From Deltaproteobacteria bacterium (GTDB lineage Bacteria > UBA10199 > JACPAL01), in assembly GCA_016180855.1 (NCBI GenBank), contig JACPAL010000018.1, forward strand, positions 17,066 through 81,065: 64,000 nt of DNA. Direction: 5' to 3'. Made by a program: the position numbers and the translations under genes. Below the pieces are notes generated by a model. That model was not told where the DNA came from. It saw nothing but the letters and a program-made list of their open reading frames with translations, and did not search any database. How positions within the stretch are numbered: position 1 is the stretch's first letter; each line of letters opens with the position of its first letter. Of the stretch, positions 20,064-62,824 are shown piece by piece.

Positions 20064-21330
20064 ACCCTTTGGCGGTCAGACGACCCTCTTGAACACCATG
20101 GTCAACGAGAAAGCGCTTCACCGCCTCAGCACGCTTCCCCGACAGTTTAAGGTTGTAAGTCTCATCTCCCTTGTTGTCTGTATGCCCACCGATTTCTACC
20201 TTAAGGATTTCAGGATGGTTCTTCAAGGTCTCAATAATCGCATCGAGGATATCCTGTGAGACCTCGCGAATCGACTCCTTCCCATGTTCAAAGTGGATCT
20301 TCTTCTTGATCTCAATCTCCTTCTCGCCGATCTCAACGAGGGACGATTCCGCAGGGGGAGGTGGGGGGGGCGGAGGTGTCGCCTCCACTTTCGGTTCCTT
20401 TTTTTGGGCGACCTTCTTTTTTCTTGTCTGACCTTGGGTATAGGCAACTCCCCCAATGATTCGATAGAACGGACTGCCATAGCTGTTAATGACACCCGCA
20501 GTGACTCCGGCTGAAAGGGCGAGCCCTGGCAAAGGTGGAATCCTGAAACGGATGCCACCCCCTCCTTCGAGCGGCGACTCCGATTCACGATCATACGGTC
20601 TCTTCAAGAGAAAGGAGCTATTGAGCTCGCCGATGAGATCAATCCAGTCAACGGTCTTGATCTTCAACCCGACTCCGATCGGGATGTAATCGTCCCTCTC
20701 GGTCACGGTACCCGGGAAAATAAATCCACTCCGGGCCATCAGTCCCAGATTGAACGACATCTCAGCCCTGTCAAGAAACTCACCATCCAGAACAAGCAGA
20801 CCGCCTCCCGAGAAGGTTCCATCCGCCGCAAATTGATCCTCATTCCCTGTCGGGATCGAAAGGATCGGCACAATCGCAAAACCGACATCATAATCCTTGA
20901 GGTCCACCAATCGGAATTTCATCTGAATGCGAAGATCCCCCAGACCGCGACTCGTCGTTCGTGTGACGTTGTTACTGTCGGCGGTCAGACGGGTGAGGCT
21001 CGTTGCATCATTAAAGAGGACGACCGGCAGGACAACACTAAACTCCAGCCAATCGGTCAAACCAGCCGCAACGCCGATGTCCGTCATCCAGAGATTGTCG
21101 ACCATCGGGACATTGGTCACCCCTCGAAGGAGCGGCTGATGGGCATAGTTGATCCCGACCCCGCCGTGAAACTGCCACTGTCCAAGCCCGCGCGATGAGA
21201 GAACCGAAAAGTAGGAGCCCGGCCCGATCGATGGTTTGAAATTTTCGACCGAAGCGCCGATATCAGCCCAGGAAAATCGGGCCAGCAAGAGGAGAAGAGG
21301 CAAAGTACGGATCACCCGTCGATGAGGCAT
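19921..21330 (-). CDS. OmpA-family outer-membrane protein (N-terminal beta-barrel, poly-Pro linker, C-terminal OmpA_C peptidoglycan-binding domain)
   Basis: Signal peptide, P8 linker and C-terminal motif NLKLSGKRAEAVKRFL...RRVEF. Confidence 0.75.
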   Translation of the reverse strand: MPHRRVIRTLPLLLLLARFSWADIGASVENFKPSIGPGSYFSVLSSRGLGQWQFHGGVGINYAHQPLLRGVTNVPMVDNLWMTDIGVAAGLTDWLEFSVVLPVVLFNDATSLTRLTADSNNVTRTTSRGLGDLRIQMKFRLVDLKDYDVGFAIVPILSIPTGNEDQFAADGTFSGGGLLVLDGEFLDRAEMSFNLGLMARSGFIFPGTVTERDDYIPIGVGLKIKTVDWIDLIGELNSSFLLKRPYDRESESPLEGGGGIRFRIPPLPGLALSAGVTAGVINSYGSPFYRIIGGVAYTQGQTRKKKVAQKKEPKVEATPPPPPPPPAESSLVEIGEKEIEIKKKIHFEHGKESIREVSQDILDAIIETLKNHPEILKVEIGGHTDNKGDETYNLKLSGKRAEAVKRFLVDHGVQEGRLTAKGYGESEPRDTNDTEEGRARNRRVEFKILERQSLTGTSPSSAPSKPAVP

Positions 21331-22424: not shown

Positions 22425-24074
22425 TCAAACCTTCCTCGCCATCGGGTGCCTCCGTCCCATTCCGAACGCCTTTGAGGTCACTCGAATGCCAGGCGCTGCC
22501 TGGCGCCGCTTGTATTCATTCTGGTCGACACGACGGATAACCCAACGAACTGTCATTTTTGGGAAACCAAGCGCGACGATTTCATCCTCTGACTTCTGTT
22601 CTTCAACATAAGCCTTCAAAATCGAATCCAAAACCTCATAAGGAGGGAGGGTATCCTGATCGGTCTGATTTGGCCTAAGCTCGGCTGTCGGGGCCTTGGC
22701 AAAAATTCTCTCAGGGATAACCTCCTGCCTTCTGTTGATCCAACGAGAGAGCTGATAGACCATCTGCTTTGGAAGATCGGAAAGTGCGGCCAGTCCGCCA
22801 CTCATATCACCGTAGAGGGTACAATAACCGACCGCCAACTCTGATTTGTTACCCGTCGTCAAGACCAGGTAACCATGACGATTGGAAAGGGTCATGAGGA
22901 GATTACCGCGAATCCGTGCCTGAAGGTTTTCATCCGCAAGATCGGGAGATTTGTCCACACGCCGGAACAGTTGACGATAGGAGCGGTAAACCGAGTTAAT
23001 GGAAATCAGTTGTGATGAAATCCCCAGATTTTTGATCAGTTTTTTTGCATCCTCAAGGCTCTCATGACCGGTATAAGGAGACGGCATGACAACACCGAGG
23101 ACATTCTTTGGCCCCAACGCCTTTGCCGCTAGCGTTGCTGTGAGCGCCGAATCAATCCCTCCGGAAATCCCCAGCGCCACCTTTTTGAAACCACATTTTT
23201 TGGCATAATCCCTGATTCCTAACAGGAGGGCATGAAAGAGCGATTCCAAATCTTCCATCGCCTCCAATTCCCCCTCGCCCCCATTGGGGGGATTTTGCAT
23301 ATCGACAATCACCAGGTCCTCCTGAAACGCCTTCCCGCTGGCGATCACCTCCCCTTGCGCACTGATGGCAAGGGATCTCCCATCAAAAACAAGCTCATCA
23401 TTTCCGCCGACAAGATTTACAAAAAAGAGGGGGAGGCGGTGTCGGACCGCATGGGCACGAAGAAGCTCCTCCCTCATCTTCTCCTTCCCTACGGAATAAG
23501 GGGAGCAGGAGAGATTTAAAAAAAAATCCGCGCCGGATTTGGCCTGTTCTTCCAAAGGGTCTTTGGAATAAAGACGCCTCTGCCAAAGCCGCTCGTCGCT
23601 CCAGTAGTCTTCACAAATGGAGATCCCTATCTTTTGATGCCAAGACCAGAGACCGGTTTCGGTCCCCGGTTCAAAATAGCGGGTCTCGTCAAAGACATCA
23701 TAGCTCGGCAGAAGATTCTTGAAGTAGTGTCCACGAATCTGCCCCCCCTCCAGGAGGGCCGCCGCATTAAAGAGAGATTTTCCACTCCCTCCCCGGTTCC
23801 TCTCCAGATACCCGACAACGACAGCAATCCCGGTGGCTGAGGAGGCTATGAGATCCAACGCCTGGAGATTTTTTTCGATGAACGACGGCCTCTCCAGAAG
23901 ATCACGTGGCGGATAACCGGTCGTTGTCATCTCCGGAAAGGCGATCAGATCAACTTTTTTTTCTTTCGCACGATGGACGAAAGAGACAACCTTCTTAACC
24001 GTGGCCTGAAAATCGCCAATCCTCGTGTTGATCTGGGCCAGTGCTATTTTCACAAAACACCTGATGCCTTCCAA
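22425..24074 (-). CDS. nadE: glutamine-dependent NAD+ synthetase
   Basis: N-terminal nitrilase/CN-hydrolase domain plus NAD synthetase P-loop GISGGIDSALTATLAA. Confidence 0.9.
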   Translation of the reverse strand: MEGIRCFVKIALAQINTRIGDFQATVKKVVSFVHRAKEKKVDLIAFPEMTTTGYPPRDLLERPSFIEKNLQALDLIASSATGIAVVVGYLERNRGGSGKSLFNAAALLEGGQIRGHYFKNLLPSYDVFDETRYFEPGTETGLWSWHQKIGISICEDYWSDERLWQRRLYSKDPLEEQAKSGADFFLNLSCSPYSVGKEKMREELLRAHAVRHRLPLFFVNLVGGNDELVFDGRSLAISAQGEVIASGKAFQEDLVIVDMQNPPNGGEGELEAMEDLESLFHALLLGIRDYAKKCGFKKVALGISGGIDSALTATLAAKALGPKNVLGVVMPSPYTGHESLEDAKKLIKNLGISSQLISINSVYRSYRQLFRRVDKSPDLADENLQARIRGNLLMTLSNRHGYLVLTTGNKSELAVGYCTLYGDMSGGLAALSDLPKQMVYQLSRWINRRQEVIPERIFAKAPTAELRPNQTDQDTLPPYEVLDSILKAYVEEQKSEDEIVALGFPKMTVRWVIRRVDQNEYKRRQAAPGIRVTSKAFGMGRRHPMARKV

Positions 24075-43106: not shown

Positions 43107-45766
43107 AGGTTCCGATAGGTTTCCGAGAGGCGTTCTACCTTCTCGACGTTGGTTCTCTGTTTTTGCCGCTCCTCCGCCACAAGTTCAGGGTCAGCATGAT
43201 TCAAAAAACCAGGGTCGGATAATTTTTTATGGAGTCGATCTCCAAGCTCGTTCAGCTTCTGAATCTCCTTTTCAAGGCGCTTCTTCTCCGTTTCAAGATC
43301 GACAAGTCCTTCCAGTGGGAGATAGAGATCCAACCGGCCGAGTGAATAGTGGGCCATTTTTTTTGAAACTGGTTTTGCGGAGACAAACTGGAGACTGCAG
43401 GAACGCGTCATCTTTTCTATCATCCCCTTTTCCCCTTCCAGCCAATGCCTCTCCTCCCTCTCCTCAACAGACAGGATCGGCTGAATCTCCTGGGCAGCCT
43501 GAATCCCATTCTCACCACGCAATGTCCGAAGTGCCGTCACAATCTCCATCAATCTTTCAACACGCCTTGGCTCTCCCTCAAAGTCCCATTGTTTGGGAGT
43601 CGGAAAAGATTCTATTCCGATCGATAGCCCTTCTTTCTGATTTAAAAACTGACAGATCTCCTCCGTGATAAACGGCATGAATGGATGAAGGGCCCGGAGG
43701 GTTTCATCCAGAATCTCGGAGAAGACCGACTGATTCAACCGAACCTTGGAGAACTCCAGATACCAGTCACACAAGGTGTGCCAAAAAAAGTCATAAAGTT
43801 CCTTCGCCGCCTCATCAAAACGATACCCCTCGATTCCCCTTGTTATTTTTGCGAGTGAAGAGGCCCACTTCTGCAAAATCCATTGATCATAGTCGCTTAA
43901 GATCTCGCGAGAGATCTCCTGAGGCGGCAGGCTCACAAAAAAACGCGCCGCGTTCCAGATCTTGTTACAGAAGTTCCGATACCCCTCAATCACGGGCTCG
44001 GAGAGCTTCACATCACGACCGGGCACCGCCAGGACCGCCAACGTAAAACGAAAGGCATCCGTACCAAATTGATCCATGATCGTGAGCGGATCAATGACAT
44101 TTCCCTTCGACTTGCTCATCTTCTGTCCCTGCGCGTCACGCACGAGGGCATGGATATAAATATCCTTAAAAGGAACCTCCCCCATAAACTCAAGCCCCAT
44201 CATCATCATCCGGGCGACCCAGAAAAAAATGATATCGAAGCCCGTAATCAGAACCGATGTGGGGTAAAAGGTCTTAAGCTCCTCTGTCTGGTCCGGCCAA
44301 CCGAGTGTAGAAAAGGGCCAGAGGGCGGAGGAGAACCAGGTATCGAGAACATCGGAATCTTGCTCAAGTTCGGTCGAGCCGCAGGTGGGACATTTTTTAG
44401 GTATATCACGGGAAACAATAGGAGGACATATCCCCCCCTTCCCCCCCCTTAATTTAAGGGAGGGGATACAGTACCACGCCGGAATCCGATGCCCCCACCA
44501 GATCTGACGTGAAACACACCAATCTTTAATCTCACCCATCCAGTTCGCGTAGGTCTTTGTCCAATTGTCCGGAAAGAATCGTGCCTTTCCATCCTGAACC
44601 GCTTGAAGCGCCTTTTCCGCGAGTGGCTTTGTTTTTACAAACCACTGCATCGAAAGATACGGTTCCACAACAGTTCGACAGCGATAACAATGGCCAACCG
44701 AGAGCTTGTGCGGTTCAACCTTTTCAAGAAACCCTTGCTGCTCCAGCTCTTCGACAATCTTTTTTCGGCATTCGAAACGATCCAACCCCTGAAAGGAGAC
44801 CGCGTTTTCGTTCATCCTCCCTTCATCCGTAAAAATATTAATACGAGGGAGCTTATGGTCGTTTCCAAAAATGAAATCGTTGAAGTCATGGGCCGGGGTT
44901 ACTTTAACCGCACCCGTCCCAAACTCCTTGTCAACACGAGGGTCAGAAATAATAGGGATCTCCCGATTGACTAAAGGCAATAATAGTTTTTTACCAATAA
45001 GACCTTTATACCGTTCATCTTCAGGGTGAACCGCAACGGCGGTATCTCCAAGCATCGTTTCAGGACGCGTGGTGGCCACCCTCACCCCCACCCCCTCTCC
45101 CGCCCTTCGGCATGGCTCAGGGAAGGCCAAGGGGAGAGGAGAGGCAAATGGGTAGCGAACAAACCACAAATGCCCATTCGTCTCATGATGCTCTACCTCC
45201 AGATCGGAAAGCGCCGTCTTGCAACGAGGACACCAGTTGATGAGATAGAGATCACGGTAGATCAGCCCCTTGTTGTAAAGACGGACAAACGCCTCACGCA
45301 CGGCGCGCGAGAGCCCCTCATCCATCGTAAACCGTTCGCGCTTCCAGTCACAGGAGGCCCCCAATCTTTTTAGTTGATGAATGATCTGTCCACCCGACTG
45401 CCCCTTCCATTCCCAAACCTTTTCAATGAAGCGTTCCCTTCCCAAATCCTGTCGTTTCTTCCCCTCCTTGGCTATGTCACGCTCTACAACGTTCTGCGTC
45501 GCAATGCCGGCATGATCAGTCCCCGGCATCCAGAGGACATTGAACCCTTTCATCCGTTTGTAGCGGGCAAGGATGTCCTGGAGGGTGTTGTTCAGGGCAT
45601 GCCCCATATGAAGCGAGCCCGTGACGTTCGGTGGCGGGATCACCATACAAAATGGGGGTTTGGATGATTTTGGCTCTGCATGGAAGTAGCCTTCCTTGAG
45701 CCAGACTTCTGACCATCGTCTCTCAACTTCATGCGGCTCGTACGCCTTGGGGAGTTCCCTCTTCAT
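43103..45766 (-). CDS. valS: valine--tRNA ligase
   Basis: HMGH and KMSKS motifs, plus a C-terminal coiled coil. 887 aa. Contains two in-frame palindromic element insertions (see repeats). Confidence 0.95.
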   Translation of the reverse strand: MKRELPKAYEPHEVERRWSEVWLKEGYFHAEPKSSKPPFCMVIPPPNVTGSLHMGHALNNTLQDILARYKRMKGFNVLWMPGTDHAGIATQNVVERDIAKEGKKRQDLGRERFIEKVWEWKGQSGGQIIHQLKRLGASCDWKRERFTMDEGLSRAVREAFVRLYNKGLIYRDLYLINWCPRCKTALSDLEVEHHETNGHLWFVRYPFASPLPLAFPEPCRRAGEGVGVRVATTRPETMLGDTAVAVHPEDERYKGLIGKKLLLPLVNREIPIISDPRVDKEFGTGAVKVTPAHDFNDFIFGNDHKLPRINIFTDEGRMNENAVSFQGLDRFECRKKIVEELEQQGFLEKVEPHKLSVGHCYRCRTVVEPYLSMQWFVKTKPLAEKALQAVQDGKARFFPDNWTKTYANWMGEIKDWCVSRQIWWGHRIPAWYCIPSLKLRGGKGGICPPIVSRDIPKKCPTCGSTELEQDSDVLDTWFSSALWPFSTLGWPDQTEELKTFYPTSVLITGFDIIFFWVARMMMMGLEFMGEVPFKDIYIHALVRDAQGQKMSKSKGNVIDPLTIMDQFGTDAFRFTLAVLAVPGRDVKLSEPVIEGYRNFCNKIWNAARFFVSLPPQEISREILSDYDQWILQKWASSLAKITRGIEGYRFDEAAKELYDFFWHTLCDWYLEFSKVRLNQSVFSEILDETLRALHPFMPFITEEICQFLNQKEGLSIGIESFPTPKQWDFEGEPRRVERLMEIVTALRTLRGENGIQAAQEIQPILSVEEREERHWLEGEKGMIEKMTRSCSLQFVSAKPVSKKMAHYSLGRLDLYLPLEGLVDLETEKKRLEKEIQKLNELGDRLHKKLSDPGFLNHADPELVAEERQKQRTNVEKVERLSETYRNL
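44431..44470. repeat. GC-palindromic element (TTAA-centred subtype) inserted in-frame in valS
   Basis: atccccccccttccccccccccttaatttaagggaggggat. Encodes PSLKLRGGKGG, the same SLK[IL]RGG peptide as the shc copy. Confidence 0.65.
45066..45134. repeat. family-3 palindromic element (short form) inserted in-frame in valS
   Basis: The reverse complement cctctcctctccccttggccttccctgagc..ccgaagggcgggagaggggg aligns with 27621-27690. Encodes PLPLAFPEPCRRAGEGVGV in a variable ValS loop. Confidence 0.65.
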
Positions 45767-55406: not shown

Positions 55407-56810
55407 TTACAACGGCTTTTTAAACCGTTCCTGCAGGTAGCAATCAACCTGATCAATTGCAATCCGGTCCTGCCCCATCGAGTCCCGATCCCGTACCGTC
55501 ACCTTGTGATCCGTCTCGGAGTCAAAATCACAGGTGACACAAAACGGGGTGCCAACCTCATCCTGTCTTCGGTAGCGTTTACCGATAGAACCGGTGTCAT
55601 CATACTGGACACGCCATCTTCCAGACAGCTCCCGGGTTATTTCACGCGACCTTTGCATGAGGGAATCTTTGCGGGACAGTGGCAACACAGCAACCTGAAT
55701 CGGGGCCAGGTGATAGGGAATACGAAGCAACATCTCGGTCTCCTTCACACTTTCGGTCGTCGTGGTTCTTCCCCCTTGAATCTCCTCATAGGCGTTCAAA
55801 AGACAAATCAGGACCGTCCGGGTTAACCCAAAAGTCGGCTCAACAACATGCGGAAAAAACCGCTCTTGTGTCACCGTATCGGTGTACTTCAAGTCCTTGC
55901 CTGATTTCTCAGAGTGATTCTTGAGATCGAAATCAGTCCGATAGGCAAGGCCGAAGAGCTCCTTCCATCCCATCGGGGTTTCATACTCAATATCAACCGT
56001 GCGGCTCGAATAATGGGACAATTCGTCTTTGGTGTGCTCACGCACCCTGAGCTTACCAGGATTCAATCCCAATTCACGCGTCCAGGCCCACATCTCCTCC
56101 AGCCAGTATTCAAACCACTTCTGCCATTCCTGGGGAGGAACAAAATATTCAAACTCCTGCAGATCAAATTCGAGTGTCCGAAAGGTAAAATTTCCCGGAG
56201 TGATCTCATTTCGAAAAACCTTGCCGGAGGCGGCAATTCCAAAAGGGAGCCGCATCCGCATCGACTCGGCAATCGTCCGAAAATTGACAAACATCCCCTG
56301 AGCCAGCTCTCCCCGCAGATAAACGGCTGACTGCTCCCCTTCGAGGACTCCCAAAGAGGTTTTAAACAACAGGTTAAAAATCCGGGCCGGTGTAAACTGG
56401 CGCATCCCACAATGAGGACAGGCGATTTTGAGTTCCAAAATCAGCTGGTCCAACTCCTGAATCGATTTCCCCTCGACCTTGACCGAAGGATTCTTCTCCT
56501 CAATGAGATGGTCGGCTCGATAGCGCTTTTTGCACTGCTTGCAGTCAACCTGGGCATCATTGAAATTGGCAACATGACCGGAAGCGACCCAGACATTGGG
56601 ATTCATGAGAATAGCAGGATCAATGCCAACCATATCGGACCGGCTCTCAACAAAACGTCTCCACCAGGCCTGCTCGATGTTCCTTTTCAGCTGAATACCG
56701 AGGGGACCGTAATCCCAGGAGTTGGCTAGCCCCCCATAAATCTCTGATCCCGGGAAGATGAATCCGCGACGCTTGGAGAGTGAAACCAGCTTTTCCAGTG
56801 TAACGGCCAT
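55407..56810 (-). CDS. glyQS: glycine--tRNA ligase (alpha2 dimeric type)
   Basis: RRGFIFPGSEIYGGLANSWDYGPLG...LKRNIEQAWW N-terminal signature. 467 aa. Confidence 0.88.
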   Translation of the reverse strand: MAVTLEKLVSLSKRRGFIFPGSEIYGGLANSWDYGPLGIQLKRNIEQAWWRRFVESRSDMVGIDPAILMNPNVWVASGHVANFNDAQVDCKQCKKRYRADHLIEEKNPSVKVEGKSIQELDQLILELKIACPHCGMRQFTPARIFNLLFKTSLGVLEGEQSAVYLRGELAQGMFVNFRTIAESMRMRLPFGIAASGKVFRNEITPGNFTFRTLEFDLQEFEYFVPPQEWQKWFEYWLEEMWAWTRELGLNPGKLRVREHTKDELSHYSSRTVDIEYETPMGWKELFGLAYRTDFDLKNHSEKSGKDLKYTDTVTQERFFPHVVEPTFGLTRTVLICLLNAYEEIQGGRTTTTESVKETEMLLRIPYHLAPIQVAVLPLSRKDSLMQRSREITRELSGRWRVQYDDTGSIGKRYRRQDEVGTPFCVTCDFDSETDHKVTVRDRDSMGQDRIAIDQVDCYLQERFKKPL

Positions 56811-56893
56811 ACCCTTCCTTCTTACAAAGCCGGTTTATTCTTGGCAATCAGATTACTTATTGCTTTTTAAGGGCCCCTCCTTATAATTTTTAC

Positions 56894-57997
56894 GTGCCAC
56901 TGATTCGGGGGACTCTTTCAGCGCTAATCATATGCCTTGTTCTCGTCTCCTGTGGAGGCGCTGTAAAGGATGAGCGAGGCAAGAAGGGTTCACTTTTTCA
57001 GAGGAGGGAAAAGAAACCTATTTCGGTTGCTACCCTCCGGGTGGCCGCCAAGGAGATCCCGTTTGTCTTGAAGGCAAAGGGCAAGACAGAGGTCTCGGAC
57101 AAATTCCAGGTCAAGGCGCCTGAAGTGACGAGTCGTGTTGCGGAGATTTACGTTGAAGAGGGACAAAGCGTGGAAAAGGAGTCCCCCCTCCTCCGGTTCG
57201 ATGATGAACCGCTTCGCGAAAAACTGGAGCTCCTCCGAACGGAACAGGAGGAGGCGGAGAAAGGACTCGAAGATGCACGTTACCTCGATAAAAACAAGGA
57301 GCGGTTGCTAGCCGCCGAAAAAATGATTCAAGAAGAAGCGGACGGGCTCGATGAAAGGATCCAAAAATATGAATCAACCCTCGAAAGGGTCAAAGCGGAA
57401 ATCACCTCTTACGAGAAACAGATCACCTTGACGGAGGTTAAAGCGCCTATTGCCGGGCTCATCACGAAGAGGGATGTTTCCGTCGGAGAAAAAACGGAGA
57501 AAGACAAGTTGATCCTTGAAGTCGTACTGATTGAGCCGTTGCGTTTCATTTTTGATGCCCCCCTGGAGGTTGTCACCTCAATGAAAATCGGAGACCCGAT
57601 CCCGGTTGTCTTTTCCTCACTCAAGAAGAAAGAGTTTGTCGGCGCGATTACCACTGTTGGAGCAGAGGCGGGGGCGGGAGGCGACGTGCAGGTCAAACTC
57701 CTCCTCCCCAACCAAACCCAGGAATTGAAGGGTGAGGTTGAGGGCGAGATCAACTACCCCACATCGATCAAGGAGAAGGTCATTCTGATTCCCTCACAAG
57801 CGTTGCTCAAGACAGAACGCTCCACCTATGTTTTCAAAATAGTGGATAAAAAGGCAAAGCGTGTTCCGATCGGAACCGCCGGAGAGCATGGAGGGGAAGT
57901 GATCGTCACGCGAGGTCTTGAGGAGGGGGATGTTGTAATCACCTCTCCAATTCAAAATCTGAAGGACGGTTCGCTTGTCGAGATGCAATCATCATAG
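56894..57997 (+). CDS. efflux membrane-fusion (HlyD/RND adaptor) lipoprotein, orphan
   Basis: GTG start with lipobox LVLVSCGG. Biotin-lipoyl, coiled-coil and beta-barrel MFP layout. No pump gene adjacent. Confidence 0.7.
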   Translation: MPLIRGTLSALIICLVLVSCGGAVKDERGKKGSLFQRREKKPISVATLRVAAKEIPFVLKAKGKTEVSDKFQVKAPEVTSRVAEIYVEEGQSVEKESPLLRFDDEPLREKLELLRTEQEEAEKGLEDARYLDKNKERLLAAEKMIQEEADGLDERIQKYESTLERVKAEITSYEKQITLTEVKAPIAGLITKRDVSVGEKTEKDKLILEVVLIEPLRFIFDAPLEVVTSMKIGDPIPVVFSSLKKKEFVGAITTVGAEAGAGGDVQVKLLLPNQTQELKGEVEGEINYPTSIKEKVILIPSQALLKTERSTYVFKIVDKKAKRVPIGTAGEHGGEVIVTRGLEEGDVVITSPIQNLKDGSLVEMQSS

Positions 57998-58700
57998 AAC
58001 ATTCCTCCTAATACTGGCGATCTGCCTCTCCTGGGTCCCTCCGCTTTTAGGGGAGTGGAAAGAGATCGGACCAACCCTTAACTATCAGCTTGTCCAAAAA
58101 GATTTCCCCATTCATCTTTTCAAAATTGATCCTAAACAATGGTCGCTCGACATCCTTGTCGCCTCCCATTATGGGATGACGACCCTGACTGCCAAGGAAT
58201 TCCGCGAAAAAAGCCGTGCCACCCTCGTTATTAACGGCGGCTTCTTCAATGAACATTTTAAATCACTTGGGCTTCTGGTTCGAAAAAGTGAGATTATTAA
58301 TCCACTGCGAAAGGCCGACTGGGGAATTTTTCAGGTTCAGGAGAAGACCGCTTCCATTATCCACCGCAAGGAATGGACCGGGCTTGGTGTCATCACGGCG
58401 ATTCAGGTTGGTCCACGCCTTTTGATCAGCGGGAAAATTCCTTTTTTCAAACCGGAGCAAAATCCCCATCGACGCTCCGCCGTTGGAATAACAGAAACAG
58501 GAGAAATCGTCATCGCCCTCTCCGAGAGCCCCCTCTATCTGAGTTCGTGGGCCAAGATCCTGCAACAATGGGCGGTCTCTGCCTTGAGCCTTGATGGCGG
58601 AGGCTCGTCTCAACTATCAGCAACGCTCCCTGGATTTTCACTGGAAGTTTCGGGAACGACGGGGGTTCCCAACGTTGTAGCGATATTCCAAAAAAACTAA
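57975..58700 (+). CDS. phosphodiester glycosidase (DUF2233) family protein
   Basis: LDGGGSSQL signature and an N-terminal signal peptide. Confidence 0.65.
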   Translation: MSRCNHHRTFLLILAICLSWVPPLLGEWKEIGPTLNYQLVQKDFPIHLFKIDPKQWSLDILVASHYGMTTLTAKEFREKSRATLVINGGFFNEHFKSLGLLVRKSEIINPLRKADWGIFQVQEKTASIIHRKEWTGLGVITAIQVGPRLLISGKIPFFKPEQNPHRRSAVGITETGEIVIALSESPLYLSSWAKILQQWAVSALSLDGGGSSQLSATLPGFSLEVSGTTGVPNVVAIFQKN

Positions 58701-59734
58701 ATTCCGGCAATCCTATCAGGCCTCCCGCCTGGCATAGGTAGCGTGTTGTCTCTTAAAAATTCTAAGAATGCCCTATATCCTCTCCTAAGAATACGTTCTG
58801 TAGTGAAATCATAGGGACCCTCTACTCGTGGCTGCCCCGGGAAATATTTCGCCCACCCAGGAGCACCTCTACAGACAGTCCTCCCTCTATCAACAACAGG
58901 AAAAAGATGACTCGGCCTGACGGTGCCATAAAGAAGTGCTTCGCCCAATCCCCAAGCATAAACGGCAGCAGCATCATTTTGTGGACTGATCCCTGTTCCA
59001 CAGCCAGAGCACGCATCCGCATAAGCTCTATTTCCACGAACAAGGATCTCAGCCTTTGCCGGAATAACGGGAAACTCCCTTCTAGGAAATTTCCTCTTAA
59101 TAATTCGATCGAGTGCCACTTCAGCATCGGCGGTAGTCCTAAACCTCTTCTCCATGATCGCAAGTGCCATCTCACGACCAGTCATCGGAGCTCTCTTTTC
59201 CGCCAACTCGCGGAGCCTTGTCTCTAAATAGATTGCGTTGAGACGGGAGCTATCGTTGAATTGGATGATCGCCCGAACTTCATCCGGCACGCCGCCAATA
59301 CCCTTCAAATATCTTTCGGCAATCATCGTCAGGCGGGCCGTTCGGCTCATCCTTCGACCTTCCCCTTTGACAATCTGAGAAGCGCTCCTCACTGGTACTG
59401 ACCGTGTAATAGCCGGTGCCGTGTACCTCACTCCTAGGTTGCGTTCAGTCATCCGTTTTATCGGCATCGGTACAGCTGCCACTCGGCTAGACCTGACGTA
59501 GGCATCTGGGTCAAAATCGACCCGTGGCCTAAAGGCCGATCGTATAAGCCTTCCAGCAGCCACACCTGCCAGTGCATAGAACCCTGATACGATTGATGTC
59601 CTAATAAAATGGTTGTCCCAATTGTATCCACTAAAGACATTGAAGGCACTCGGTTCAGGTGCAGGAGGAGGTTCACTAAATAATGGCCCTTTAAGGTGTA
59701 AATAATTAGGGGGTGATATGAATGGTGTTATCAT
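58697..59734 (-). CDS. hypothetical 345-aa protein adjacent to islet
   Basis: No confident family. Weak DACSG...H pattern reminiscent of NlpC/P60-type Cys peptidases. Confidence 0.4.
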   Translation of the reverse strand: MITPFISPPNYLHLKGPLFSEPPPAPEPSAFNVFSGYNWDNHFIRTSIVSGFYALAGVAAGRLIRSAFRPRVDFDPDAYVRSSRVAAVPMPIKRMTERNLGVRYTAPAITRSVPVRSASQIVKGEGRRMSRTARLTMIAERYLKGIGGVPDEVRAIIQFNDSSRLNAIYLETRLRELAEKRAPMTGREMALAIMEKRFRTTADAEVALDRIIKRKFPRREFPVIPAKAEILVRGNRAYADACSGCGTGISPQNDAAAVYAWGLGEALLYGTVRPSHLFPVVDRGRTVCRGAPGWAKYFPGQPRVEGPYDFTTERILRRGYRAFLEFLRDNTLPMPGGRPDRIAGI

Positions 59735-59846
59735 TTTGTTCTCCTCGCTGTTTTGCTTATCGGCTTTGTCACTTAAAAGTTGCTTAAGCCTATGTTCCTT
59801 TTTTAAATGGTCTTTAATCGGTTGGGAGGGGACTATAACTAGAGCT

Positions 59847-59946
59847 AACCACTCATCGAATCGAGAAATTCCTTGTTGGTCTTTGCGTTCTGCATCTTGT
59901 CGGTCAAGAACTCCATCGCATCGACCACGTTAAGCGGTTGCAGGAC
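59847..59946 (-). pseudogene. displaced duplicate of the last 33 codons of rho
   Basis: 100 bp identical to 62825-62924, encoding [33 protein letters not shown]. About 12 nt of residual similarity (HLNR versus HLDRK) continue upstream, then the sequence is unrelated. Confidence 0.65.
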
Positions 59947-62824
59947 ACGATTCAAATGAGTAACCGTTCTACTCAGAGAGCCCACAATAACCAGGGATCG
60001 GACCGCTGTTTCCGTCAGGATCAATACAGGTTTCCGTCGGAAGACAGTCAATATCGCTCGAATCAATTCTGCCTGCCCTTGTTGGATCGCAGATGTACTC
60101 CTGCACGGAATAAATAGTACGGCCATAACTTAATCTCGAGTGACAAGAATCAGCATAAATAAATGATTGATCTAGACTATCATGTACTGTCAACGTCACG
60201 GAACCTCCAATCCCTGGCATCATTCCACCATCGCTATCATCACAGCTAAAGGTAATACCTTCGTCAATTTCCTCATTGCAGTTGTCATCCCGGCCATCCA
60301 GCCGTTCGAGTTCTATACCGGGGTTTGTAGAAGCTCTATTATCGTCACAATCCCCACCCCCAAAGGAACAAATAGAAAGTATCCCATCCGAGACCATAGC
60401 CATATTCAGGTCGCAATAGTTATCACGATCATCATCACAACCCTCATCAACTCTCCCATTACAATCATTATCAGTATTGTCGCAGATTTCAGGGGCATAA
60501 ACACAATCTGGTTCACCTAAATCAATCTGTACCACGGCTACCCTCTCCGAAGAAGTCGATGGCCCGACAAAGCGGACCTGCCATCCAAGACCTGTCGTAC
60601 ATGTTTCGCCAGGAAGGATAAAACCATCAAAAAGGTCATCCCTCCAATCCTCGCGAGAGTTGGGGCTACAATCAAGCAAATAGGTATGGCGGCCATTCTC
60701 GTCTGTTGTACATCTCAAGAAAAGAACGCCGATCGTTGCAAAATCAAAAGAATACAGATTTTCGAGACGAGATTGATCTGCAGAAAGGATGGCATCCATA
60801 ATTATCATGCGATCATAACCAAGGGGCTCCCTGTATTCAACGGATAGGGTGTCACAAGGTTCCGTGACGAAGCGTTCTGCCCGGTAATCGTGAACGACGC
60901 CACTGGTCAGGGCATTATCTACTTCAAGCTGGATACATTGAGGATCGGTACTACCAGCTTCAACGGCCCCCAAGAGATCGGGGAGAGCAGAAGATAAACC
61001 AGCCTCCATCTCCAACCACCCCAATTTTTCCTTATAAGCACAGTTAAAATGGCCATGGCCAGGGTAGGCAGCCATCGTATCAAAGGGGTCCCCATAATCC
61101 GACCTCTCAAGACAACTCCCCCCAAAGACCGACTCGCCACAATCGAGGTCATGCGCATGATTCAAACCTAAGACATGCCCCCCTTCATGAAGGATAGTTT
61201 CATCATCAAAATGGTTACGCCCCATCGTGATGGTGTGCAAGGCAACCAACCCATCATCCGTGGGCCACTCATGCCTCCCTAAATATCTGCCATTGCCTGC
61301 AGCGGTAGGATACAAAAGAAGCCAATCATAATTGGCAAAGTTCACCTGATCCTCACAGAGACGGATCATAGTTGGAATGATAAGACCAGAAGAGATCGAC
61401 GGTCGCGTGCTATCTGCATAGGCCTCACAAACATCAAATCCTATGGAAAACTGACCAAAGGAAAGTTCTCTGAAGCTCTCTTCGGCCGATCTTGTCTCAC
61501 GATCAACCGTCGCCCGATCACTGATCGCCGCCTCATAAGGATCATTTTGCCAATGAACATACAAAACAATCCCTCTGGCGCCAGGACCCACTGATAAATT
61601 CACTAAGCTCCGAAATTCGTCTGGAAGAGTTTCATCGCTCAAGATAGTGGGATCGTTTAAATCCACTAAAGAATAACTCTGCAACACAGCCCCCATTTCC
61701 AATAACATTACAGCAAGGGAATTCATCTCAACAAAATTCATATCGGCGAGGAAGGTCGTGTCGAGATGAGCAAAGGCTACCGGGTCGCTAAATTGACTCT
61801 TAAAACTTTCATAGAAAGCAGTGGCTGCTTTGCCCACCTCAGAACACCAATTTTCCCCTTCAAGTTGCCTGAAAAACGCCATCTGATCTGAAATCAGATC
61901 AAGTAATTTCCCCTCCCCGATGAACTTTTCATAAAGCGCAGGACTTAAGTTCCCAACCCTTAAGATCGCTTGCTCAAGTTGCTCGAGTCTTTGGGGCCAT
62001 ACCAGCTTGAACTCCTCACGAAACAGTTGATTAACAAGACGAGGCGCCCGATGACTAAAATTCGCAATCGCTATTTTGGCCAAATCAGACTCGCTTTCTT
62101 TAATCAAATCCCCTTTCAGAACAGAAAGAATCTTGGCTATTTCATTGATCTTCGATACTTCCGGGGTACATTGAACTGATCCAAACTCAATAAGATCTTT
62201 TGATAGAAGTTGCTCCAGTTCCGCTGCCTCACAAAGGGCAATTTCTCTGGATAGACCAACGCTGTCCATCTCCTCTTCCAACGATTTTCGGGATTCACGA
62301 AGAACGGTGAGAAAATTTTCCATCGCCAGTTTTCCGCCCATTAACTTTTTCATCTCTTCCTCAATTCTTCTCCCCTCAATAATAAAAAGAAGAATCATCT
62401 CATTATCGAGAATCGCTCCTTCTTCCATCAGTCGCATCATCTCTGACTCTTTTTCCAGTAATCCCTGGATTCCTGACTCGACCTCTACCAGTCTCTTTTC
62501 AACTTCATCTTGTTTGAAGCGGACGGTTTCAAGGCGGGAGGATATCAGAGAGAGGGGGGGGGTACCCTCCGGCGGAAAGGGGCAGCTAAACGCCCAAAGT
62601 TGGTTTGGCAGGGAGAAAACAAACAGGAGAACAACCAGGATCGGTATGTTGCGTGGCATAATCACCTCCCGTGAATGGTAGATATGCCATATTCATGCCA
62701 AATTCTGATTGTATAAAACTAGGTGATCAACTTTATGAAACTATTGTTAAATCTGAGTGTGGTCTTGTCTCTTTGTGAAGAGTAAAACGAGAAATGAAGT
62801 TCTGGTGAAAGAAAGTCTATTCTC
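59947..62824 (-). mobile_element. AT-rich single-gene islet inserted at the 3' end of rho, bounded by 100-bp direct repeats; no integrase present
   Basis: Perfect direct repeats at 59847-59946 and 62825-62924. The interior GC is about 44% against about 53% in the flanks. It carries only the metalloprotease gene and its AT-rich promoter. Confidence 0.5.
59969..62665 (-). CDS. secreted metzincin-like zinc metalloprotease with N-terminal coiled-coil region and C-terminal MopE-like Cys/Asp-rich repeats
   Basis: Signal peptide, HEGGHVLGLNHAHD (HExxHxxGxxH) and repeats such as CDDNRASTNPGIELERLDGRDDNCNEEIDEG. RBS GGGAGGTGA upstream. AT-rich (about 44% GC) relative to the flanks. Confidence 0.75.
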   Translation of the reverse strand: MIMPRNIPILVVLLFVFSLPNQLWAFSCPFPPEGTPPLSLISSRLETVRFKQDEVEKRLVEVESGIQGLLEKESEMMRLMEEGAILDNEMILLFIIEGRRIEEEMKKLMGGKLAMENFLTVLRESRKSLEEEMDSVGLSREIALCEAAELEQLLSKDLIEFGSVQCTPEVSKINEIAKILSVLKGDLIKESESDLAKIAIANFSHRAPRLVNQLFREEFKLVWPQRLEQLEQAILRVGNLSPALYEKFIGEGKLLDLISDQMAFFRQLEGENWCSEVGKAATAFYESFKSQFSDPVAFAHLDTTFLADMNFVEMNSLAVMLLEMGAVLQSYSLVDLNDPTILSDETLPDEFRSLVNLSVGPGARGIVLYVHWQNDPYEAAISDRATVDRETRSAEESFRELSFGQFSIGFDVCEAYADSTRPSISSGLIIPTMIRLCEDQVNFANYDWLLLYPTAAGNGRYLGRHEWPTDDGLVALHTITMGRNHFDDETILHEGGHVLGLNHAHDLDCGESVFGGSCLERSDYGDPFDTMAAYPGHGHFNCAYKEKLGWLEMEAGLSSALPDLLGAVEAGSTDPQCIQLEVDNALTSGVVHDYRAERFVTEPCDTLSVEYREPLGYDRMIIMDAILSADQSRLENLYSFDFATIGVLFLRCTTDENGRHTYLLDCSPNSREDWRDDLFDGFILPGETCTTGLGWQVRFVGPSTSSERVAVVQIDLGEPDCVYAPEICDNTDNDCNGRVDEGCDDDRDNYCDLNMAMVSDGILSICSFGGGDCDDNRASTNPGIELERLDGRDDNCNEEIDEGITFSCDDSDGGMMPGIGGSVTLTVHDSLDQSFIYADSCHSRLSYGRTIYSVQEYICDPTRAGRIDSSDIDCLPTETCIDPDGNSGPIPGYCGLSE

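Follow-up and report, generated by a model that had tools for sequence, protein, structure and literature searches.

Does a run of nine identical bases near the start of a predicted protease gene act as a phase-variation switch, or is it what codon choice happens to leave behind in ordinary coding sequence? The question is raised by a C9 homopolymer (G9 on the plus strand) at positions 62554–62562 on the minus strand of the window, by which we mean the whole 64-kb stretch of DNA analysed here (64,000 nucleotides). The run lies in the gene for an 896-residue metzincin-like protein (59969–62659, minus strand; NCBI MBI2068191.1, 'hypothetical protein') and is the only G/C run of at least 9 nucleotides in the window. 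If it were a genuine contingency locus, slipped-strand mispairing as the DNA replicates would frequently produce C8 and C10 alleles, the protease would be reversibly OFF (a peptide of 37–43 residues) or ON, and the population would be mixed. As set out below, we give this possibility a real but small chance.

The C9 tract and its reading frame

The run itself is as the sequence-only reading described it: the plus strand at 62554–62562 reads GGGGGGGGG, and the coding (minus) strand across the tract reads acC CCC CCC Ctc tct ctc, with (TC)3 directly after C9. Its place in the gene had to be corrected. The tract had been assigned to codons 35–38 of 898, counted from a GTG (62665–62663) that overlaps the GGAGG Shine-Dalgarno sequence. 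This ribosome-binding site, at 62665–62669 on the minus strand, stands 5 nt upstream of an ATG at 62659, which is the likely start codon, and the NCBI record likewise has 896 residues. Counted from this ATG, the tract covers nucleotides 98–106 of a 2691-nt ORF, 3.6% into it, and contributes to codons T33-P34-P35-L36 (aCC CCC CCC Ctc) of 896.

The tract had also been placed within the signal-peptide coding region. The predicted signal peptide, read by eye as MPRNIPILVVLLFVFSLPNQLWA-FS-C, occupies codons 1–26 (62582–62659, minus strand), and its cleavage candidates, likewise chosen by eye, are an AXA-like site after A23 and a lipobox-like WAFS immediately before C26. The tract starts 7 codons after Cys26 and reaches 10 codons past the predicted cleavage site, in the proline-rich linker (CPFPPEGTPPLSL) that joins the signal peptide to a coiled-coil stalk. 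In the AlphaFold (AF2) model, the N-terminus forms a helix over residues 5–21 and then an unstructured stretch, with residues 22–37, the tract residues among them, modelled as a low-confidence (low-pLDDT) linker. Judging by this model, Pro-Pro is unremarkable in the linker and in-frame changes in length would be harmless there.

Computed tract-length variants give 896 residues for C9, and C6 and C12 are also in frame; C8 and C11 lead to a stop after 37 and 38 codons, and C7 and C10 after 42 and 43. The mechanical premise of switching off by slippage therefore holds, and the proposal that a slip of one base in either direction would cause an early frameshift was confirmed, C8 yielding 37 residues and C10 yielding 43. 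Both the position of the tract near the 5' end, where a change of +/-1 brings an immediate stop, and its length favour a contingency locus, the latter falling within the range known to be phase-variable, at least as given for Campylobacter jejuni in PMC4965091, where poly-G/C tracts of at least 7 are counted.

We also considered an action of the run on RNA or translation, by transcriptional slippage or programmed frameshifting, that would yield a second product or tuned expression. Long homopolymers can make RNA polymerase slip. Both alternative frames, however, close within 1–7 codons of the tract, so that no second product is available, and an Rfam search of positions 56000–64000 returned no element. 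Programmed frameshifting was rejected on the grounds that the alternative frames close at once, and we regard an RNA-level role in general as extremely improbable. Scanning for promoters and terminators gave no more than the shuffles predict, and the 163-nt spacer that precedes the gene showed no promoter-like site. Among other candidates, a G-quadruplex was discarded because there is a single long G run only, and the opposite-strand ORFs at 62307–62681 and 62510–62674 were rejected as functional because both overlap the well-supported protease gene.

A metzincin-like protease gene on an accessory islet

The gene, carried on an accessory islet, plausibly codes for a zinc protease that is either secreted or lipid-anchored. 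The domains of the product are arranged as signal peptide, coiled coil of ~300 residues, catalytic domain, Cys-rich MopE-like repeats and C-terminal beta domain, and the AF2 model has a pLDDT of 73 overall, mostly 75–92 over residues 361–711. The HExxHxxGxxH zinc-binding motif is present as HEGGHVLGLNH (residues 491–501). In an alignment of 17 sequences (16 homologues and the window protein), E492, G494, H495 and H501 are invariant and H491 is nearly so, and M529, downstream of the zinc motif in GDPFDTM, is invariant as well and is the candidate residue for the conserved Met-turn of metzincins. Foldseek matched the catalytic domain to InhA2 (4yu6, E=3e-6), fragilysin and ADAMTS4, and at E<=0.01 Peptidase_M11 was matched by 7 of the 17 aligned family members, including the window protein, with Reprolysin_3 matched by 4 and Reprolysin_5 by 3. 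The protein resembles the metzincins (M6 InhA, M10 fragilysin, M11 gametolysin and M12 adamalysins) in its HExxHxxGxxH motif and the fold of its catalytic domain, and perhaps in its invariant downstream Met. It differs from them in its long N-terminal coiled coil, an unusual feature, in its MopE-like Cys repeats towards the C-terminus, and in its sub-threshold protease scores: Cu-binding_MopE was the only Pfam model whose threshold the window protein reached, with no curated protease family among them, and it fell far below the cut-offs of the NCBIfam protease models. A word-indexed protein search returned no match, whether the query was the full protein or its first 476 residues. Viral contigs contained weak relatives of the catalytic domain only.

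The islet, consisting of the protease gene and the 163-nt spacer upstream of it (59947–62824, minus strand), is ~3 kb long and lies just downstream of rho (62823–64000, minus strand, cut by the end of the window; 432 residues in the deposited record). It is flanked by a perfect 100-nt direct repeat, whose right copy (62825–62924, minus strand) comprises the last 33 rho codons and the first base of the stop codon, and whose left copy (59847–59946, minus strand) is an orphan 3' fragment of rho downstream of the protease gene. An integrative element would leave such direct repeats of the 3' end of its target gene on both sides of the insert; no integrase or recombinase was found in the insert, which holds the protease ORF only. 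Neither of the two closest relatives examined has the islet between rho and the NAGPA gene: one (L092) has the NAGPA gene directly after rho, an empty site, and the other (L091) carries different cargo there. The window's own species is not in the collection of GTDB representatives, where a Rho-based scan gave a best match of 73% identity. The GC content of the protease gene is 46.7%, versus 51% for the window. An accessory gene of lower GC, whose product combines a predicted signal peptide or lipobox with a metzincin fold, is in keeping with a contingency locus.

The run is neither longer nor commoner than chance predicts

The sequence-only reading had rested its case in part on the claim that runs of nine or more identical bases are rare in coding DNA. 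Locally this claim fails. In 100 dinucleotide-preserving shuffles of the window, G9/C9 was matched 2.2 times on average and at least once in 80 of the 100. Shuffling synonymous codons inside each of the 45 ORFs of the window led to the same result, with 1.02 +/- 0.94 G/C runs of at least 9 expected versus 1 observed (P = 0.66) and 3.25 of at least 8 expected versus 3 observed. The tract needs no rare codons, since CCC makes up 27% of the Pro codons in the window (11 of 39 in the protease gene) and ACC 39% of the Thr codons. In short, the tract does not exceed the expectation from composition and codon usage, the property by which Gogol et al. (2007) screened for candidate loci, and this lack of excess counts against a contingency locus.

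Comparable runs occur in the middle of housekeeping genes, namely an A9/T9 inside the NAD synthase ORF (23518–23526) and a G7 and a G8 inside valS (44432–44448, the G8 at 44441–44448); a C8 lies inside an OmpA-family ORF (20363–20370). Long runs are therefore not restricted to accessory or surface genes, and the presence of equally long ones in essential genes also speaks against a dedicated switch. Elsewhere in the 64-kb window there are no arrays of short-unit repeats or other contingency-type repeats, and within these 64 kb no set of tract loci concentrated in surface or accessory genes was found, so that the sign of a tract-rich 'phasome' is missing from this stretch. In favour of a switch, on the other hand, with about one run expected in the whole window, the chance of its falling in the first 4% of a gene is only a few percent, a figure obtained post hoc and with n = 1.

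Tract length across assemblies and homologues

The deposited MAG and a Logan contig (L001) seen in two samples both have C9, in frame; the Logan contig is 100% identical to the window over 2911 nt, tract included. The contig of a second strain (L083) starts at codon 477, downstream of the tract. The available assemblies show no length polymorphism, a further point against a contingency locus; they are consensus sequences from one population at one agricultural groundwater site, and minority tract lengths would therefore be invisible in them. At the protein level, the 90% cluster has two members, the full-length protein and a C-terminal fragment, which is the cluster representative. No OFF-type ORF was present in this cluster, and the collection has no entry for the 823-residue ORF that a C8 allele would give. 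When genome and metagenome contigs were scanned for the flanking pattern with tract lengths of 4–16 allowed, no match was returned, nor did a scan of the metagenome contigs with the upstream flank alone return one. All three homologous genes inspected (L084, L085 and L086) lack a 5' G/C run of at least 6, which again counts against a contingency locus, and the N-terminal region as a whole is not conserved within the protease family.

The same assemblies bear on whether the C9 length might be an assembly or sequencing miscall, the true gene being a pseudogene or having a different N-terminus. The local assembly is imperfect. In the window, ~35 internal residues are missing from rho right at the repeat boundary, a loss of 105 nt when compared with other assemblies, and the left repeat, which is 126 nt long in two other assemblies (L001 and L083), is missing 18 nt at 59943/59944; moreover, a related MAG, whose name ends in _51_6, has low coverage. 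Users of the record should know that the deposited scaffold is locally unreliable near the islet, with an apparent 105-nt gap in rho. Against a miscall of the tract stands the uninterrupted 896-codon ORF that C9 provides, with a good ribosome-binding site and a predicted signal peptide. In two samples, a different assembler (Logan unitigs and contigs) also arrived at exactly this sequence through the tract, and the source study describes the trimming of Illumina adapters and contaminants from its reads. Illumina reads are not strongly homopolymer-biased at 9 nt. A miscall is thus very unlikely.

Discussion

Taken together, the run is expected by chance and its length is uniform in the few assemblies at hand, and for these reasons it is most likely ordinary coding sequence; we consider it probable that C9 arose incidentally from the choice of codons. 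The tract consists of two CCC Pro codons and the adjoining C's of the ACC (Thr) and CTC (Leu) codons on either side. Like any 9-nt G/C run, C9 would be the most slippage-prone site in the protease gene, and frameshift null alleles would be expected to arise there more often than elsewhere, going by general knowledge of replication slippage. Nothing indicates that selection has favoured the run as a reversible ON/OFF switch or that it works as one, a role that is unproven, and the in-frame allele is the one found in every available assembly. What speaks against an incidental origin is that the 5' position, the predicted exported protein and the horizontally acquired islet fit the classic pattern of a contingency locus.

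The nature of the host weighs in the other direction. Contingency loci cluster in host-adapted organisms, whereas the window comes from a deltaproteobacterium-like MAG of a free-living groundwater bacterium. Were the tract to work as a switch, simple-repeat contingency loci, familiar from host-adapted pathogens, would gain an example in a free-living subsurface bacterium, and stochastic ON/OFF control would be tied to a protease that is secreted. This would widen a well-known mechanism to a modest degree. A more elaborate proposal, to which we assign a smaller chance still, is that C9 is a working slippage switch of an exported metzincin in an uncultivated free-living groundwater host, carried on a single-gene islet that could also be lost by recombination between the 126-nt repeats of the rho 3' end. 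In that event, two layers of stochastic control would operate on a possibly costly secreted 'public good'. More generally, finding a 9-nt G/C run at the 5' end of an exported protein's gene is not in itself evidence of phase variation in a genome of ~51% GC, where codon usage by itself leads one to expect about one such run in every 60 kb of coding DNA.

Comparison with characterised systems shows how far the likeness extends. In Neisseria, pilC carries a poly-G tract within its signal-peptide codons, and experiments have shown that it varies between ON and OFF. Like pilC, the protease gene has a G/C run at its extreme 5' end and codes for an exported protein, in its case a predicted one, but the pilC run lies inside the signal-peptide codons, whereas the candidate C9 tract follows the predicted cleavage site. 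C. jejuni is not known to possess MutS/MutL-type repair. As listed in PMC4965091, strain NCTC11168 has 29 loci with tracts in the size range cited above, and its resemblance to the window consists of a G/C homopolymer of similar length in a reading frame, where a change of +/-1 toggles between full-length and truncated product. C. jejuni, however, has dozens of tracts per 1.6 Mb, which are polymorphic within cultures, whereas here a single tract occurs at chance frequency and no polymorphism was observed.

In Bordetella pertussis, a moderately to highly GC-rich proteobacterium, poly-G/C tracts are likewise found in genes for exported proteins, including the surface-protein genes tcfA and bapC (Gogol et al. 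2007, PMC1891110). The Bordetella tracts were chosen as longer than chance, 74% of them are polymorphic among species, and variation was seen inside single cultures (PMC1891110); the window C9 differs from them in being no longer than chance predicts. Finally, a general role in inactivating prokaryotic genes has been proposed for homopolymers at 5' ends (PMC2831843), a proposal that lends some weight to a contingency locus, and the 5' poly(A) tract of Listeria monocytogenes inlA was described together with a general 5'-end bias of homopolymers (Orsi et al. 2010, PMC2831843). That bias was documented for poly(A)/poly(T) runs no longer than 7 bases, and the switching rate of inlA was obtained from reporter fusions (PMC2831843), whereas the tract considered here is a poly-C run. 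The inlA product and, by prediction, the protease are nevertheless both surface or secreted proteins, and each gene has its tract close to the 5' end, where a frameshift leads to a very short peptide.

Results

The tract, C9 on the coding minus strand and G9 on the plus strand, lies at 62554-62562, exactly where the sequence-only reading had placed it, and is read as ggt acC CCC CCC Ctc tct ctc. It is the only G/C run of at least 9 nt in the 64-kb window. The other 9-mer is an A9 (23518-23526; T9 inside the NAD synthase/CN-hydrolase gene), and G/C 8-mers occur within an OmpA-family gene (C8, 20363-20370) and, as part of a G7-AA-G8 stretch (44432-44448; 8-mer 44441-44448), within valS. The long open reading frame holding the tract spans 59969-62665 on the minus strand and, judging from the sequence, probably starts at ATG 62659, with GGAGG (62669-62665) standing 5 nt ahead. 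A GTG at 62665 had been proposed as the start, but it falls within this ribosome-binding site, and the exact protein is on public record with 896 aa (MBI2068191.1, a "hypothetical protein" from an 87,810-nt contig of a Deltaproteobacteria bacterium MAG). With the start at ATG 62659, the tract would correspond to nt 98-106, codons T33-P34-P35-L36. Its assignment to the signal-peptide coding region was thus slightly off, the tract lying 7-10 codons beyond the predicted cleavage site.

By eye, the N-terminus MPRNIPILVVLLFVFSLPNQLWAFSC displays a basic n-region, a hydrophobic core and an AXA-like site after A23, and WAFS|C26 is compatible with a lipobox pattern. Scanned in full with HMMER, 1.84 billion representatives yielded 2242 hits, most of them to the C-terminal Cys-rich MopE-like repeats alone; about twenty, P0013 (918 aa, 39% identical) among them, matched the central domain. 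When 16 homologues were aligned with the window protein, E492, G494, H495, H501 and M529 were invariant and H491 nearly so, tracing an HExGHxxxxxH motif with a downstream Met. Among these 17 sequences, Peptidase_M11 matches 7, Reprolysin_3 4 and Reprolysin_5 3; the window protein alone stayed below every protease-family threshold tried. An AlphaFold2 model built from the homologue alignment (mean pLDDT 73) comprises a helix (residues 5-21), an unstructured, low-confidence segment that includes the tract residues (22-37), a long helical stalk (38-330), an alpha/beta domain (361-711), a Cys-rich region (~720-800) and a beta domain (803-894). Foldseek matched the catalytic domain to Bacillus InhA2 (E = 3e-6), fragilysin and ADAMTS4 in the PDB. 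Collectively, the motif, the family and fold matches, the model and the N-terminus support the earlier description of the product as an exported metalloprotease, predicted here to be metzincin-like.

Translation of altered tract lengths bears out the frameshift logic put forward for the tract, with every ±1 length yielding a stop within 43 codons. C8 and C11 lead to stops after 37 and 38 codons, C7 and C10 after 42 and 43, respectively, and C6 and C12 keep the frame with one proline lost or gained. No second product is available from either alternative frame, and a product starting at the next in-frame ATG, codon 74, would be without the signal peptide. Mechanically the ON/OFF logic holds, as it would wherever a long run occurs near the beginning of a gene. 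In its length, its position and the consequence of a frameshift, the tract resembles known phase-variable systems, as a genuine contingency locus at the C9 would, but the frequency of such runs in the window is at chance level. Dinucleotide-preserving shuffles gave a mean of 2.2 G9/C9 matches, with at least one in 80 of 100 shuffles. Under a stricter null, in which synonymous codons were permuted within each of 45 ORFs, keeping the proteins and per-gene codon usage, 1.02 ± 0.94 G/C runs of at least 9 nt were expected versus 1 observed (P = 0.66), and 3.25 of at least 8 nt versus 3. CCC accounts for 27% of the window's proline codons and for 11 of the 39 in the protease gene, and ACC is the commonest threonine codon. 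The tract is therefore not beyond chance expectation and is ordinary by composition. The remaining long homopolymers sit mid-gene in ordinary genes; those in valS and in the NAD synthase/CN-hydrolase and OmpA-family ORFs all lie in intact genes and are usable as internal slippage controls. Tandem Repeats Finder detected no short-unit arrays of contingency type anywhere in the window, the rest of which is core housekeeping (argS, rpsA, aroA, pheA, recG, relA/spoT, valS, smc, ppdK, glyS and rho).

The available consensus sequences, essentially from one population and with minority alleles invisible in them, contain C9 (ON) alone, which also speaks against a contingency locus. Logan contig L001 (SRR12113425_55750, 2930 nt, recorded in two samples) encodes the exact 896-aa protein and shares 2911 nt with the window at 100% identity, C9 included, so that the tract itself is confirmed by an independent assembly. 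The 90%-identity cluster holds, besides this protein, a single 420-aa C-terminal fragment from a second MAG (NC_groundwater_454_Ag_B-0.1um_51_6; contig JACPIZ010000143.1, L083), sampled from agricultural groundwater in Modesto, California (BioProject PRJNA640378). This MAG belongs to a separate strain: over ~5.4 kb it differs by 14 SNPs, and no indels occur in homopolymers. Its contig starts at codon 477, leaving the tract uncovered. No record of the ORF expected from a C8 allele was found, and pattern scans of genome and metagenome collections for the tract flanks with any length of 4-16 between them gave no match. The tract is invariant in the little data at hand.

Nor is the tract found in three homologue genes, a further point against a contingency locus: their 5' regions contain no G/C runs of at least 6 nt. 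Two of them (L085 and L086) come from the same groundwater project but from a different organism. Across the family, conservation of the N-terminal 350 residues is poor, and the tract is not a family trait. The third gene (40% GC), on Logan contig L084 (SRR22388050_1128966, 2898 nt), encodes P0013, the closest full-length homologue. It is alone on its ~2.9-kb contig, resembling L001, and could, going by this, also be repeat-bounded; no rho-like sequence was found at the L084 ends.

Perfect direct repeats of 100 nt (59847-59946 and 62825-62924) flank the protease gene, and both correspond to the final 33 codons of rho. Synteny from argininosuccinate lyase through rho to NAGPA, RND adaptor, glyS, ppdK and smc is kept in the two closest relatives with retrieved context. 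One has the NAGPA gene directly after rho, the spot being empty (L092, 9245-9248), and the other carries different cargo, a 290-aa ORF and a nucleotidyltransferase pair (L091, 9356-11397); the window has the protease islet (59847-62924), plus a 345-aa orphan ORF. The protease is thus accessory and lies after rho, in a spot that varies in this lineage. Its gene has 46.7% GC versus 51% in the window. The islet carries repeats and lacks a recombinase. Between L083 and the window (55754-61231), the protease 3' half and repeat region differ by 1 SNP in 1877 nt, where ~6.8 would be expected from the adjacent core genes (13 SNPs in 3592 nt); this lower divergence is consistent with recent acquisition or a sweep. 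Immediately downstream of the islet lies the 345-aa ORF (58697-59734), for which neither Pfam nor NCBIfam gave a match. L092 does not have it in the rho-NAGPA interval, and a run of N interrupts this region in the second MAG. One arm of a perfect 14-nt inverted repeat (CGGAAAGGGGCAGC / GCTGCCCCTTTCCG) is inside the protease gene, 11 nt off the C9 tract (62573-62586), and the other is inside rho (63458-63471); chance would give ~0.1 such pairs in 8 kb.

In the window, as in the deposited rho (P0152), 35 residues are missing that an 81%-identical relative (P0154) has; they are equivalent to E. coli Rho ~350-387, and the edge of this gap coincides exactly with the repeat boundary (62924/62925). 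The left repeat copy lacks, at 59943/59944, 18 nt (GTCTGGATCCTCCGCAAG, encoding VWILRK) that are present in both L001 (2912-2930) and L083 (~1285-1302), so that a length of 126 nt rather than 100 nt is probable for the true flanking repeat. Two Logan contigs, L001 and L082, each end 30 nt inside the repeat, at positions that fit a 126-nt repeat; the Logan k-mer size, which we take to be 31, predicts such ends. The project built its MAGs by MEGAHIT assembly followed by the IDBA-UD scaffolder (PMC7906910), and L083 contains runs of N. We infer that scaffolding probably created both the rho gap and the repeat length of exactly 100 nt; otherwise the gap would reflect a crippled rho.

Discussion

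Our results suggest that the tract probably consists of incidental proline codons in a linker, slippage-prone by nature but neither demonstrated nor selected as a switch; a genuine contingency locus at this site is unlikely. Among known systems, translational phase variation through poly-G/C tracts comes nearest. C. jejuni has 29 loci with tracts of at least 7 (PMC4965091). Tracts of B. pertussis were picked for exceeding chance, and 74% proved polymorphic (PMC1891110), and at the inlA tract frameshifting is elevated ~1000-fold, as described by Orsi et al. 2010 in their work on 5'-end homopolymers (PMC2831843). Since the present tract does not exceed chance and the data bearing on its polymorphism are sparse, we do not file it among translational phase-variation loci. 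Length, position and frameshift consequence are common to this tract and those of C. jejuni, B. pertussis and inlA; unlike the B. pertussis set, it is no longer than chance would produce.
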